Assembly: GCA_041308885.1 (NCBI GenBank)
Contig: JBFZAQ010000203.1
Location: 1-35,497, forward strand
DNA length: 35,497 bases
Reading direction: 5' to 3'
DNA from: Candidatus Omnitrophota bacterium
Lineage (GTDB): Bacteria > Omnitrophota > Gorgyraeia > Gygaellales > Profunditerraquicolaceae
This document shows, piece by piece, positions 15,797-18,417 of the stretch. The position numbers and the translations under genes are program-made. Every line of letters starts with the position of its first letter. Position 1 is the first letter of the stretch. The notes under the pieces were generated by a model. That model was not told the origin of the DNA, did not search any database, and saw nothing but the letters and a program-made list of their open reading frames with translations.

Positions 15797-17158
15797 TTAA
15801 CTATCGAGCGTTCTTCTCCCAATATCCCTACGAAACTGCATCCCCTCAAAACTTAGCGCACCCACTGCCTTATACGTTGTATCTATGGCTTCTTGAATAG
15901 TATTACCTAATCCCGTAACCCCCAACACCCGCCCGCCATTAGTTACGTAATCTGCGTCCTGCGACCGAGCGCCAGCGAGGGAGTCCCGAGCCTCTATCGT
16001 CAACCCGCCTGAAGCGAGGGACGTCATGCGTCCTGCGTCTTTCCTTGTTCCGGCATGAAACACCACCACATCTTTCATCTTCGCGGCAGTATCCAGTCCG
16101 GCTATTACTTTACCCTTTGCATACTCTCCCGGATACCCTTTTGCGGCGCAAACCACGCATACGCAAGCGCGGCTATCCCAATTTAATCCTCCGCTCTTCA
16201 TAAATTTACTCACCCGGCCATCACTTACCGCCAACAGCGCTTCCACAATATCGGATTTAACCCGCGGCATAATGACTTCGGTTTCCGGATCGCCAAAGCG
16301 GGCGTTAAATTCCAAAGTTTTTGGGCCATCCTTAGTCAACATAATCCCCGCATACAAAGCCCCCTTAAATTCTATACCTTCCCGGCTCAAGCCATCAATA
16401 GTCCGATAAATCACTGTATCTAATATCTCTTTGAACAAAATCTCGGTTACTATAGGTGCAGGCGAATAAGCGCCCATGCCGCCGGTATTCGGCCCTTGAT
16501 CGTGGTCAAAAATACGCTTATGGTCCTGGCTAGCTACCAGTGGAATGACTCCTTTAGAATCAGTTAACACAATAATCGAGGCTTCCTGCCCGATAAGACA
16601 CTCCTCAATGATCACCTTATTGCCGGCGCTGCCGAATACCTTATCCTGCATTATCGTAACTACTGCCTGGCGGGCTTCGTCCACGGTTCTGGCCACTATT
16701 ACACCCTTGCCCGCGGCCAAACCATCAGCCTTAACAACACACGGTGCACCAGTTTGCTCAATATATTTTATGGCCCCGGGGGCAGTATCAAAAATCGCGC
16801 AGCGCGCGGTCGGAACTTTATATTTCAGCATCAGCTCCTTAGCAAATACCTTGCTCGCCTCCAGCTGCGCCGCTTTACGATTCGGTCCAAAAACTCTTAA
16901 GCCCTGCTTGCCAAACTCATCCACGATACCCAAAGCCAGCGGCCCTTCCGGCCCGACCACAGTTAAATCTATATGCTCGCGCCGCGCAAATTCCGCAAGC
17001 GCGGCAACATCATCCGCCTTAATATCCACGCACTCGGCCTGCTGAGATATCCCGCCATTCCCCGGCGCGCAGAATATCTTATCCACCAACTTAGACTGCG
17101 CAATCTTCCACACCAGCGCATGCTCCCTACCGCCTGAACCGACAACGAATATACGCAT
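15797..17158 (-). CDS. purD: phosphoribosylamine-glycine ligase (GAR synthetase)
   Basis: MRIFVVGSGGREHALVWKI..., ATP-grasp core, and C-terminal FHAGT...VTNGGRVLGVTG. It carries an in-frame insert of about 30 codons (see 15951-16040). Confidence 0.95.
   Translation of the reverse strand: MRIFVVGSGGREHALVWKIAQSKLVDKIFCAPGNGGISQQAECVDIKADDVAALAEFARREHIDLTVVGPEGPLALGIVDEFGKQGLRVFGPNRKAAQLEASKVFAKELMLKYKVPTARCAIFDTAPGAIKYIEQTGAPCVVKADGLAAGKGVIVARTVDEARQAVVTIMQDKVFGSAGNKVIIEECLIGQEASIIVLTDSKGVIPLVASQDHKRIFDHDQGPNTGGMGAYSPAPIVTEILFKEILDTVIYRTIDGLSREGIEFKGALYAGIMLTKDGPKTLEFNARFGDPETEVIMPRVKSDIVEALLAVSDGRVSKFMKSGGLNWDSRACVCVVCAAKGYPGEYAKGKVIAGLDTAAKMKDVVVFHAGTRKDAGRMTSLASGGLTIEARDSLAGARSQDADYVTNGGRVLGVTGLGNTIQEAIDTTYKAVGALSFEGMQFRRDIGRRTLDS
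15951..16040. repeat. intragenic in-frame repeat insert in purD bounded by TGCGTCCTGCG motifs
   Basis: TCTGCGTCCTGCGACC...GTCATGCGTCCTGCGTCT on the plus strand. It encodes DAGRMTSLASGGLTIEARDSLAGARSQDAD between the conserved HAGT and VTNGGRVLG blocks. Confidence 0.75.
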
Positions 17159-17198
17159 TAATTACCCTTAATACTTTGGATGCCCTTAATTCTTTTTA

Positions 17199-17669
17199 TT
17201 ATTTCCTGAAGTTAAATTCTTTTTGCGGCAATCTTTCTCTAATCAACTCTGAAATCTTATGCACAAACTCCTCAGCAATCTTCAAGGCGTCTTTAGCCTC
17301 TTTCATAGAACAAGGAATTTCAGGCTCGTAGATAAACCTGTTTCTTTTCTTCCTCATAAAATCATAATCATTAATAAGCTGCTTAAAGCTATCTCCTAAG
17401 ATTAAACTCGCGAATCTCACAACCGTCGCATGCTTATCCTTTATATCCGGACGGTAACCTTCAATAAACATAAGCGCCAGCCCGGAACGCAACATCGCAT
17501 TATACGCATAATTAAACGCGCATTCTTCGTCCTGGCCTAAGTTTCTTTTGGCAGTCTTAAGATCGACGTAAGCGCGCTTCAACAAATTAAGGATAGATCT
17601 ATCATCAGCAGGGCACTTCTTGATCAAACCATCCTTAAAAAGGGCTTCTTTTGATTCCTTATAAGCCAT
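17199..17669 (-). CDS. HEPN domain protein (putative toxin of a HEPN-MNT pair)
   Basis: A helical protein of about 156 aa with an ...MRKKRNRFIYEPE... block typical of HEPN-family proteins. It overlaps the upstream nucleotidyltransferase gene by 11 nt. Confidence 0.7.
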   Translation of the reverse strand: MAYKESKEALFKDGLIKKCPADDRSILNLLKRAYVDLKTAKRNLGQDEECAFNYAYNAMLRSGLALMFIEGYRPDIKDKHATVVRFASLILGDSFKQLINDYDFMRKKRNRFIYEPEIPCSMKEAKDALKIAEEFVHKISELIRERLPQKEFNFRK

Positions 17670-18234
17670 CTTCTTTACCGACCAGCATTATTTTGGGTCT
17701 CTTTAATAAATCCAAAATGAATCCGCTTCTTGCTGCCTTTTTCGCTTTGTATTCCTGCCAGGAATAAATTGTGGGGTTTATCTCTCTTTTTAGCTTCTTC
17801 TCCAAAATAGAAATCCTTTCATTCACGCAAGAGCTATCCTGATCACCGATAACCATAAGATCGATATCGCTGGCCGAATTTTCTTTTTTTGAGGCAAACG
17901 AACCATAGATGAAAGCGGTTTTTAAACCCTGAATCGATACCAAAGAATTCCTGAGGCTCGCCTCTACCCCGACCGTCTTGGAAACAATACTTTTTAATTC
18001 ATCAAACAAAGGATGGCTTCGGTTAAGGGAATAATAAAGAAGATTACCGACTCTCCGGGTCTTGAATAAATTATCCTTCTGGAATCTCAATAGTTCCCTG
18101 CGGATATTACCGGCAGAATATCCTAATACGCGCTGAAGCTCCCTTAAGTAATATTCCTGAAGCGCATTAGTAAAGAATAAGGCGAGCAGCCCCTGCCTGA
18201 TTTTCGATTTTGCAATATAAAGGCTATCCAGCAT
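17659..18234 (-). CDS. winged-HTH plus minimal nucleotidyltransferase (MNT) domain protein (putative antitoxin)
   Basis: YGSFASKKENSASDIDLMVIGD is the GS-X9-10-D-X-D minimal NTase signature. The N-terminal YYLRELQRVLGYSAGNIRRELLRF is wHTH-like. Confidence 0.8.
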   Translation of the reverse strand: MLDSLYIAKSKIRQGLLALFFTNALQEYYLRELQRVLGYSAGNIRRELLRFQKDNLFKTRRVGNLLYYSLNRSHPLFDELKSIVSKTVGVEASLRNSLVSIQGLKTAFIYGSFASKKENSASDIDLMVIGDQDSSCVNERISILEKKLKREINPTIYSWQEYKAKKAARSGFILDLLKRPKIMLVGKEDGL

Positions 18235-18249
18235 ACATACTCCGTTTTA

Positions 18250-18284
18250 AGTACAATTGTACTCAAAATAGGATACAGTGTCAA
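18250..18284 (-). promoter_or_regulatory. sigma70-type promoter with overlapping palindromic operator for the MNT-HEPN cassette
   Basis: On the minus strand: TTGACA (18284-18279), 17 nt, TACAAT (18261-18256). The perfect 14-bp palindrome AGTACAATTGTACT (18250-18263) overlaps the -10 box. GGAG lies 5 nt before ATG 18234. Confidence 0.6.
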
Positions 18285-18320
18285 TATTTACTATTTCTTG
18301 CGCATCTGTAGTTTTTTGTG

Positions 18321-18417
18321 CCCGGCGCGCGATATCTTATCCACTAACGGCGGCTCAGTAATCTTCCAAAAACAGCCCATGCTCCCGACCGCCGGAACCA
18401 ACGACTAATATTCGCAT
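18321..18417 (-). pseudogene. decayed duplicate of the first ~32 codons of purD
   Basis: It aligns with 17061-17158 at roughly four-fifths identity by eye, with a 1-nt insertion and a 2-nt deletion. It reads MRILVVGSGGREHGLFLEDY then a stop, versus MRIFVVGSGGREHALVWKIAQSKLVDKIFCAPG in the intact gene. Confidence 0.8.

Follow-up and report, generated by a model that had tools for sequence, protein, structure and literature searches.

The region forms part of a purine operon of Candidatus Omnitrophota in which all genes lie on the minus strand (Table 1; positions refer to the window, the whole stretch of 35,497 nucleotides that was analysed). Reading in the direction of transcription, the SPFH/Band 7 gene is followed by a second, truncated start of purD, a promoter, two small overlapping genes and an intact purD. 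The SPFH protein is 78-88% identical at the amino acid level to its relatives, and the cassette formed by the promoter and the two small genes lies within 35 kb of collinear core genes. The window also carries two purF paralogues (20597-22060 and 22029-23468). The type of purF was dropped as a marker of host phylogeny because both paralogues are present and the matches at 31% identity are to the paralogue.

Table 1. Features of the purD region, with positions in the window.
Feature	Position	Strand	Description
purD (phosphoribosylamine-glycine ligase)	15797..17158	-	453 aa, intact; Pfam GARS_N, GARS_A, GARS_C
Intact repeat copy	17061..17167	-	purD ribosome-binding region, ATG (17158-17156) and first 32 codons; continuous with the remaining purD
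HEPN-purD spacer, distal part	17168..17198	-	within the 40-nt spacer 17159-17198
HEPN gene	17199..17669	-	156 aa; presumed toxin/effector
wHTH-MNT gene	17659..18234	-	191 aa; presumed antitoxin and autorepressor
Palindrome	18247..18266		20 bp; overlaps the -10 hexamer
Cassette promoter	18256..18284	-	TTGACA-17 nt-TACAAT
Junction sequence	18285..18320	-	36 nt from the end of purD homology to the -35 hexamer
Pseudo-purD 5′ fragment	18321..18426	-	native ribosome-binding region, ATG (18417-18415) and 32 decayed codons
SPFH-fragment spacer	18427..18541	-	from the SPFH stop to the displaced purD start
SPFH/Band 7 gene	18542..19411	-	Pfam Band_7 5.3e-39; conserved upstream neighbour in the pur operon

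Local alignment of 17061-17167 with 18321-18426 defined a direct repeat that comprises 9 nt 5′ of the ATG and 97 nt of coding sequence. When aligned by codons the two copies are identical at 78 of 97 positions (80%), and the copy upstream of the cassette carries one 1-nt insertion and one 2-nt deletion, with its reading frame ending at a stop after codon 20 (ATG...TAC TGA). Homology to purD runs to codon 32 (CCGGG) and no further. The alignment scored 53, compared with a mean of 8.8 (sd 1.2, maximum 14) for 1000 shuffled sequences, and with dinucleotide-preserving shuffles it scored 56 against 9.6 ± 1.4 (z = 33). A nhmmer profile built from 21 Omnitrophota purD 5′ ends matched the fragment at E = 1.5e-17. 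The original prediction had described 18321-18417 by eye as a decayed copy of the purD start, about four-fifths identical, with these same indels and the same premature stop, and the formal alignment bears out each of these points. The fragment is nearest to the purD start of its own genome (80%), as the purD starts of sampled relatives are only 64-75% identical to it. The substitutions between the copies are distributed 7 : 2 : 10 over codon positions 1 : 2 : 3 and leave 7 codons synonymous, a pattern with too little signal to separate two histories that it would fit alike, a diverged donor allele or decay after duplication.

The stretch between the repeat copies (17159-18320) is 1162 nt long, and the distance from the stop codon of the HEPN gene to the purD ATG, estimated beforehand at about 40 nt, measures exactly 40 nt (17159-17198). 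No terminator-like or promoter-like site was detected within this spacer. The sequence ATTAAGGG occurs twice, once in the distal part of the spacer (17168-17198) and once just downstream, where it overlaps the purD ribosome-binding region. Upstream of the displaced purD start, the spacer that follows the SPFH gene contains an imperfect hairpin of ~60 nt (about 18447-18506) that has no U-run after it; folding of the entire 311-nt stretch gave no significant structure (z = -0.95), and this spacer showed no similarity to any of the fetched loci. Rfam gave no match in the whole window and none in a permissive search of the region, so that no riboswitch or leader was detected. The junction sequence between the fragment and the promoter showed no match to purD, nor to the portion of the cassette that is conserved across other genomes.

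The cassette promoter agrees with the consensus at 11 of 12 positions and is kept in nine or more cassette loci. Over its -10 hexamer lies the palindrome TTGAGTACAA/TTGTACTTAA, which contains one mismatch here and is perfect in most relatives, with 0 matches expected by chance. Judged from its sequence, this palindrome is the presumed operator for the winged helix-turn-helix (wHTH) domain of the MNT protein, which would bind it. The MNT gene comes first and overlaps the HEPN gene by 11 nt (17659-17669), with a single promoter-like site upstream, and the two proteins are the only gene contents of the cassette. The 191-aa protein matches the Pfam families Polbeta (1.5e-7) and NTP_transf_2 (3.6e-6), both above their cut-offs, and its GS-x10-DxD motif is intact (G111, S112, ten residues, D123, I124, D125), with these columns invariant across 36 homologues; residues 9-74 give weak ArsR-type matches. 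No record of this protein turned up in an exact look-up of public assemblies. The 156-aa protein matches Pfam HEPN (1.4e-6; 28.9 bits against a cut-off of 22). Thus, the earlier description of a cassette with its own consensus promoter and MNT and HEPN genes stands. The AF2 model of the HEPN protein (pLDDT 89.2) returned 2hsb, 1ufb, 3o10 and 1wol as top Foldseek matches, with probability 1.00 and TM scores (normalised to target length) of 0.69-0.78.

Both proteins also match the PADLOC models of the PDC-M05 system, the MNT protein over residues 10-190 of 191 (PDC-M05A, 1.5e-53) and the HEPN protein over residues 9-148 of 156 (PDC-M05B, 1.9e-14), and their genes are adjacent in the same order and two-gene architecture. 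On these sequence matches, the cassette is a member of the MNT-HEPN toxin-antitoxin/PDC-M05 candidate-defence family. PDC-M05 is a nucleotidyltransferase plus HEPN pair of the kind typical of toxin-antitoxin modules, and it was defined through its embedding in defence islands, with its antiviral role unconfirmed (PMC12988326). By contrast, the pair described here lies within the purine-biosynthesis operon, an arrangement shared by seven or more further Omnitrophota lineages. Just one related copy, L172/173, is located in a defence island, and its HEPN gene is broken.

A second point of comparison is the type VII MntA/HepT system (Shewanella SO_3165/SO_3166; PDB 5yep, 7bxo, 6m6u), with which the cassette shares an MNT gene upstream of an overlapping HEPN gene, the intact nucleotidyltransferase motif and a predicted HEPN fold that aligns to HepT structures at a TM of about 0.5-0.6. 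In HepT, a tyrosine beside the arginine motif is the AMPylation site. The cassette HEPN protein likewise has a conserved tyrosine beside its arginine motif (R109-N-R-F-I-Y114-E here, R-[NH]-x3-Y-[ED] over 60 family members), and H80 is invariant. However, the MNT protein differs from MntA in an extra N-terminal wHTH domain of ~90 aa and scores below the cut-off of the MntA model (NCBIfam NF047752 MntA_antitoxin, 24.6 bits against 60), and the HEPN protein differs from HepT in belonging to the classical PF05168/UPF0332 group, with 2hsb, 1ufb and 1wol rather than HepT as its best structural matches. In addition, the R-N-x3-Y motif lacks the canonical Rx4-6H RNase motif, the histidine position being taken by the conserved tyrosine, so that RNase activity cannot be assumed. 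The MNT protein probably represses its own promoter by placing its wHTH domain on the palindrome, and probably neutralises the HEPN protein by means of its nucleotidyltransferase domain.

The same purD-upstream interval holds a cassette in at least seven further lineages of Omnitrophota, with MNT homologues 76-81% identical in amino acid sequence (L161, L162/L178, L163, L170, L171, L174/175 and L176/177). All cassettes at or above 76% MNT identity are upstream of purD, whereas those at or below 75% are found elsewhere. The cassette directly precedes purD in the window, L163, L170 and L171. In relatives that have no cassette (L001, L003, L084), the SPFH gene ends 1-44 nt from purD, which is the adjacency that had been anticipated, and the cassette is accordingly an accessory module interposed in an existing purD transcription unit. 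Two elements of the original prediction do not survive this comparison: homologous cassettes upstream of purD in seven or more other lineages contradict a single arrival at the SPFH-purD junction, and purD did not become dependent on read-through with the insertion, as it already abuts its upstream gene in the relatives that have no cassette. A purD fragment in cassette-free relatives, which would make the duplication unrelated to the insertion, was also sought. None of ~160 other purD loci contains a second purD start, and wherever a purD fragment is present a cassette accompanies it.

The cassettes and their host loci differ in their patterns of relatedness. Over a stretch that starts at about -60 relative to the MNT ATG and ends with the HEPN stop codon, the cassettes of L174, L162 and L161 are 91% identical in nucleotide sequence, while purD of L174 and L162 is 72% identical, and cassette and purD identities correlate poorly overall (r = 0.20). 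Together with the position of all cassettes at or above 76% MNT identity, these comparisons suggest that the cassette moves between lineages yet stays at the purD locus. A cupin gene precedes the cassette in L163 but follows it in L161 and L162, and only the unit from promoter to stop is common to the cassettes of different genomes.

A second, independent scar was found in L171. Here, a remnant of a purD start (-22..+34) lies directly upstream of the cassette promoter and adjoins the native upstream gene of that genome; it scored 20 against 9.2 ± 1.3 for shuffled sequences (z = 8.4) and was matched by nhmmer at E = 0.0016. The corresponding empty site is present in L103, where the upstream gene of L171 is followed directly by purD (L103 and L171 share 80% amino acid identity in purD and 83% in purM). 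The L171 remnant matches the purD start of L103 at 27 of 29 nt and the current purD start of L171 itself at 23 of 29. The repeat junctions of the two scars differ, at +97 in the window and roughly +40 in L171. The sequence TTTTGGCAAAAGATT, upstream of the L171 promoter, was considered as a further purD remnant and rejected, as its AAGATT belongs to a conserved region that precedes the promoter in L171, L174 and L176. Shuffle alignments and nhmmer found no purD remnant upstream of the cassette in L161, L162, L163, L170, L174 or L176. Since the cassette directly precedes purD in L170 and L163, a scar is not an obligatory product of its presence there.

Base composition sets the cassette apart from its surroundings: its genes have a GC content of 39-40%, compared with 51.5% for purD and 48-51% for purF, purM and the SPFH gene. 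The contrast given in the original prediction (38% against 55%) is therefore real but smaller than proposed. Its use as a sign of acquisition is not upheld: in each of the hosts checked the cassette lies 6-12 GC points lower than the sequence on either side, indicating that low GC is intrinsic to it and gives no sign of recent transfer here. Moreover, its GC at third codon positions (GC3) is 0.45 in the window and 0.28-0.40 in hosts of lower GC, and this tracking of host GC3 suggests long residence.

The direct repeats that flank the cassette are a segment of the target gene itself. The copy on the upstream side breaks off at +97 and stands behind a spacer that is not part of the cassette, whereas the downstream copy is continuous with purD, and this is the anatomy of a homology-driven insertion. 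The best reading of the locus, which we hold with moderate confidence, is that homology in the 5′ end of purD drove the integration and that the resident start of the gene was displaced as a result. The cassette is a self-contained module of ~1.09 kb, consisting of the promoter, the palindromic presumed operator and the wHTH-MNT and HEPN genes. Within one clade of Omnitrophota it fills a variable slot of the purine operon, immediately before purD, and in the window lineage it would have integrated, or re-integrated, by recombination via the conserved purD 5′ end. The likeliest route would be a single (Campbell-type) crossover between the resident purD and a small circular DNA that carried the cassette and about 110-120 nt of the purD start; a variant of this route would start from linear DNA and combine one-sided homologous recombination with an illegitimate junction. 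The resident purD start, still on its native spacer, would thereby be left upstream of the cassette to decay, the intact start would end up downstream, and purD would be transcribed through, or from, the cassette.

Products of this kind have been described elsewhere. In E. coli, a single crossover during conjugation between the chromosome and a circle bearing a truncated homologous piece yields flanking duplications of 109-950 bp (PMC3240628), a size range that matches the ~106-nt repeat seen here. The arrays of orphan immunity genes and Rhs 3′ ends in the Vibrio cholerae T6SS (PMC5361080) are similar in that a module enters by recombination at a conserved gene and the displaced piece stays alongside it; they differ in that the displaced 3′ ends and immunity genes are maybe useful, whereas the displaced piece here is a housekeeping 5′ end that is decaying. 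The window shows no plasmid or conjugation context. The purD 5′ ends of sampled lineages are 73-84% identical, which makes them a poor substrate for RecA, and thus any donor must have been an unsampled closer relative. In a search across 5.8 billion proteins plus 241 million records from metagenomes, the closest purD is about 70-71% identical in amino acid sequence, and with nothing nearer than about 71% no empty site, donor or polymorphism was found for the window lineage. A mosaic boundary between donor and recipient was sought in the sliding-window identity of purD, where third positions are saturated. Also counting against homology-driven integration are the lack of a remnant in L170 and L163 and the retention of a useless fragment of 106 nt through about 0.2 substitutions per site.

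The same arrangement could have arisen within one genome, by tandem duplication of a unit running from the cassette to codon 32 of purD and subsequent deletion of the upstream cassette. Adjacency of cassette and purD is widespread (the four loci listed above), so that the cassette could already have been resident; the fragment is closer to its own purD start than to those of sampled relatives, and the order of genes around the cassette is permuted between genomes, as the position of the cupin gene illustrates. However, this history needs two illegitimate junctions rather than one, and the second would have to delete the first cassette as far as a point roughly -10 to -20 from the purD ATG. It would also not recreate the situation in L171, where the remnant adjoins its native upstream gene as in L103, and a genome with two cassette copies was not seen among the loci compared. 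We consider an intragenomic origin rather unlikely.

The remnant of a larger integrative element, whose integrase acted at the purD 5′ end and supplied a replacement purD start before the remainder was deleted, is a quite improbable source of the scar. A displaced gene end on one side and a replacement end on the other are the classic anatomy of such integrations, and insertion at one gene end recurs in two lineages. In the case of e14 and phage 21 at icd, displaced and diverged replacement gene ends flank the insert and the gene stays intact, as purD does here around the cassette; those integrations need an integrase encoded by the element and a fixed att core. In contrast, the 20 neighbouring proteins screened over the 35 kb of the window contain no recombinase domain (transposase or integrase), the window is also devoid of excisionase and other element genes, and none appeared in the gene lists or ORF translations of related cassette loci, between which only the promoter-to-stop unit is common. 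Furthermore, the variable scar junctions (+97 and roughly +40) argue against a fixed att core.

Recent horizontal acquisition by a transposition-like event that duplicated its target, the version put forward in the original prediction, is very improbable. The GC contrast is real and direct repeats do flank the insert, but the GC deficit recurs in every host checked, GC3 tracks the host, and the 20% divergence and indels between the repeat copies show that the insertion event is not recent. Known transposases duplicate a few to roughly 15 bp of target. A repeat of ~106 nt is far from such a short exact duplication, and the cassette ends lack terminal inverted repeats and no transposase or integrase is encoded in the 35 kb, so that duplication of the target in the transposon sense is not sustained. 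Finally, chance similarity or an assembly artefact has a negligible probability even for a window from a metagenome-type assembly without close relatives, as the repeat stands far above shuffled sequences and is matched by the purD profile, the longest exact runs common to both copies (~10-13 nt) are too short to mislead a k-mer assembler, and a comparable scar is present in the independent assembly of L171.

The components of this system and the logic of its recombination are already known; under homology-driven integration, the scar would be an ordinary recombination trace of cassettes that enter and leave one fixed site of the core genome, and it is a clean and dated record of a small toxin-antitoxin/candidate defence module entering a core operon without a recombinase of its own. 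A broader idea, which we regard as speculative and unlikely, is that the wHTH-MNT/HEPN cassette is a recombinase-free, locus-specific mobile module among Omnitrophota that finds its homology anchors in the conserved 5′ end of purD and in the invariant promoter-operator and 3′ end of the cassette itself, lands always in the purine operon and is maybe coupled to purine supply. If this were true, purD transcription would have to cross the cassette, making its loss costly, and an ATP-dependent MNT antitoxin within the purine operon could tie HEPN activity to the supply of purine nucleotides. In Omnitrophota, the PDC-M05-type pair is found mainly in a housekeeping slot upstream of purD and not in defence islands, which matters for the reading of defence candidates whose prediction relies on genomic embedding. 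The slot upstream of purD is a small accessory-gene hotspot in a phylum about which little is known.

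A cassette encoding proteins of 191 and 156 aa lies between the SPFH/Band 7 gene and purD, in the purF-to-purE part of the window, where every gene is carried on the minus strand. The core genes pst, purB, purL, purQ, purF, purM, purD, purE, sua5, rpiB, glyA and nrdR are collinear across the 35 kb; neither an integrase nor a transposase was found in the 35-kb window, and no terminal repeats of the cassette were found. Beside purF the purine cluster has a second amidotransferase paralogue, with GATase_7 as its sole domain, and adjoining purL it has a second SPFH/Band 7 gene. The coordinates of these features and of those in compared loci from other genomes (L handles, mostly other Omnitrophota) are collected in the table.

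Coordinates of features in the window and in compared loci
Feature	Locus	Coordinates	Strand
purF	window	22060-20597	minus
purM	window	20451-19438	minus
SPFH/Band 7 gene	window	19411-18542	minus
Decayed purD-start copy	window	18321-18426	
Cassette promoter TTGACA-17-TACAAT	window	18284-18256	minus
20-bp palindrome	window	18247-18266	
191-aa ORF (MNT)	window	18234-17659	minus
156-aa ORF (HEPN)	window	17669-17199	minus
Intact purD-start copy	window	17061-17167	
purD	window	17158-15797	minus
purE	window	15581-15093	minus
Second amidotransferase paralogue	window	22029-23468	
Second SPFH/Band 7 gene	window	28232-29209	
Imperfect-palindrome repeats	window	1626-1755, 14947-15101, 15567-15800, 20469-20596, 25120-25254	
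Long inverted repeats	window	3691-3878, 11086-11222	
91%-identical cassettes	L174	256-1353	
	L162	3944-5036	
	L161	2203-3298	
purD-start remnant region	L171	4838-4893	
Compared region	L103	4780-4830	
Slot accessory genes	L093	4656-4946	
	L103	4170-4790	
	L163	2590-3935	
	L176	3174-4297, 5544-5756	
Related cassette in defence island	L172/L173	5001-6031	

Formal local alignment paired the intact purD start with a fragment on the far side of the cassette. The repeat comprises 9 nt 5' of the purD ATG, the ATG and coding sequence (97 nt coding), and its copies are 80% identical and differ by two gaps, of 1 nt and 2 nt. Its alignment score of 53-56, where shuffled sequences score about 9 ± 1.3, together with the match of the fragment to a profile built from 21 Omnitrophota purD starts (E = 1.5e-17), establishes that the predicted duplication of the purD 5' end is real. 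The reading frame of the fragment meets a stop after 20 codons, and its purD homology runs out after codon 32. The 40-nt spacer from the HEPN stop to the purD ATG was borne out, as was the contrast in GC between both cassette genes (39-40%) and purD (51.5%). Cassette GC is 6-12 points under that of its neighbours in every genome checked, and cassette GC3 tracks host GC3, indicating that low GC is a property of the cassette and no sign of recent arrival in the window. The repeat has accumulated about 0.2 substitutions per site and two indels, so the event is not recent; even so, it postdates the divergence from every sampled relative, synonymous sites being saturated in those comparisons. No purD closer than about 71% to that of the window was found in the protein or contig collections searched. 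The original prediction, acquisition of a toxin-antitoxin module with duplication of its target, was supported in part.

About 160 other purD loci were compared without yielding a second purD start; among cassette-bearing loci just one other, L171, has one. The comparison of relatives revealed no cassette-free locus with a purD fragment among those about 160, in keeping with the predicted tie between duplication and cassette. The L171 remnant is shorter (-22..+34, z = 8.4). It sits immediately before the cassette promoter and is joined without a break to the native 99-aa gene upstream of it. In the relative L103 the same upstream genes are followed at once by an intact purD, which represents an empty site. 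The remnant matches the L103 purD start at 27/29 nt, versus 23/29 nt for the present purD start of L171 itself. By our reading of the alignment, L171 and L103 share roughly 50/54 positions at the 3' end of the 96/99-aa gene upstream; there, and over the initial 29 nt of purD, the two genomes look far more conserved than along their purD genes, which have roughly 75% nucleotide identity.

The scar is most simply explained by recombination between the resident purD and DNA that bore the cassette plus a purD start, with the shared purD sequence as the homology. The resident purD start would thereby have been stranded upstream of the cassette, together with its own upstream spacer and ribosome-binding site, and would subsequently have decayed. 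In E. coli, flanking duplications of 109-950 bp arose when a circle bearing a truncated homologous segment entered the chromosome by a single crossover (PMC3240628), and homology-anchored displacement leaving orphaned pieces has been proposed for Vibrio cholerae T6SS effector-immunity arrays and Rhs loci (PMC5361080). A tandem duplication followed by deletion would give the same picture; we consider it unlikely, since it requires two illegitimate junctions and leaves the native contiguity in L171 unexplained. Insertion of an integrase-bearing element that has since been lost is improbable, as nothing supports it and it fits the junction positions poorly (+97 in the window, roughly +40 in L171).

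Cassettes also occupy the slot upstream of purD in L161, L162 (and L178), L163, L170, L171, L174/175 and L176/177, with MNT and HEPN proteins 76-81% and 79-87% identical to those of the window. In the window, L163, L170 and L171 the cassette immediately precedes purD, at a distance of 14-52 nt. In the cassette-free relatives L001, L003 and L084, SPFH directly abuts purD (gaps 1-44 nt). Slot contents vary by genome and include GIY-YIG nuclease, DUF5674, cupin, VanZ, YggT and BamE-like genes and unknown small genes; the slot is a small accessory-gene hotspot inside a core operon in different Omnitrophota. Family members further removed (75% or less) are spread over many phyla and also found in archaea, away from purD. 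In L172/L173, one such related cassette (MNT 75%) with its HEPN gene split into fragments lies in a defence island, alongside type I restriction-modification genes, an HNH gene, a HepT/MNT pair, a PIF1-WYL gene and VapBC.

The cassettes of L174, L162 and L161 are 91% identical in nucleotides, in a sharply delimited block that begins about 60 nt ahead of the MNT ATG, a little before the -35 hexamer, and ends precisely at the HEPN stop, whereas the flanking purD and SPFH genes of these genomes are 72-79% identical (purD of L174 and L162, 72%). Conversely, L162 and L163 have the most alike host genes, yet their cassettes are just 84% identical. These discordant histories indicate that the cassette has been exchanged between lineages while still at the purD locus, perhaps by recombination within its own conserved ends. 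MNT homologues 70-73% identical to that of the window were seen in L180, L181, L182 and L183, from bins labelled Aminicenantes, Planctomycetia and Stahlbacteria, and reflect either cross-phylum transfer or binning errors.

A family of imperfect-palindrome repeats of about 110-150 nt lies in intergenic positions of the window, between pur-operon genes, with units of TGACCAAT and ATCCCAA-like sequence around a GC-rich tip, CCTGCCGGCAGGCAGG. One copy folds as a long hairpin (z = -3.8), and the family has no Rfam match. Upstream of the L162 cassette is a GC-rich stretch resembling the repeat tip, CTGCCTGCCGGCAGGCAAGG. Two further long inverted repeats in intergenic DNA, one with 76-nt arms (83% complementarity) and one with 45-nt arms (84%), consist of short tandem units.

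The cassette promoter overlaps the 20-bp palindrome, and both are kept in every related cassette examined. We infer that the winged-helix domain of the MNT protein binds the palindrome and represses its own operon. No promoter-like or terminator-like sites were found from the cassette promoter to purD. In cassette-free relatives purD is essentially without a spacer of its own, which argues that it has always been transcribed from upstream; the cassette would now be interposed in the transcription unit feeding purD.

Putative functional roles of both proteins come from family and fold assignments only. The 191-aa protein matches Pfam Polbeta and NTP_transf_2 and carries a minimal nucleotidyltransferase domain, with an intact GS-x10-DxD motif (G111, S112 ... 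D123, I124, D125) that is invariant in 36 homologues; the ~90 residues N-terminal to this domain give weak ArsR-type winged-helix matches. The 156-aa protein is a HEPN-domain protein: it matches Pfam HEPN, and its AlphaFold model (mean pLDDT 89) best resembles the classical HEPN proteins AF_0298, TT1696 and ST0689 and the sacsin HEPN domain, with HepT structures a poorer match. Its family lacks the Rx4-6H motif and has a conserved tyrosine at the position of the histidine in catalytic HEPN proteins, within R-[NH]-x3-Y-[ED] (R109-N-R-F-I-Y114 in the window) or, in its longer form, M-R-x-K-R-[NH]-x3-Y-[ED] (residues 105-115); H80, elsewhere in the protein, is invariant. With R-[NH]-x3-Y-[ED] in place of Rx4-6H, and an MNT protein scoring 24.6 bits against the MntA model (cut-off 60), the pair is not a canonical MntA/HepT pair. 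The two proteins match both components of the candidate system PDC-M05 in PADLOC models (1.5e-53 and 1.9e-14). A 2026 survey described PDC-M05 as the combination, usual for toxin-antitoxin modules, of a nucleotidyltransferase and a HEPN protein, its antiviral role being unconfirmed (PMC12988326).

The module is a PDC-M05-type MNT-HEPN pair, such pairs being already known, and the scar would belong to a known type of homology-driven insertion. The system is mildly unusual in only two aspects, its recurrent purD-linked location and the exchange of the cassette between lineages.
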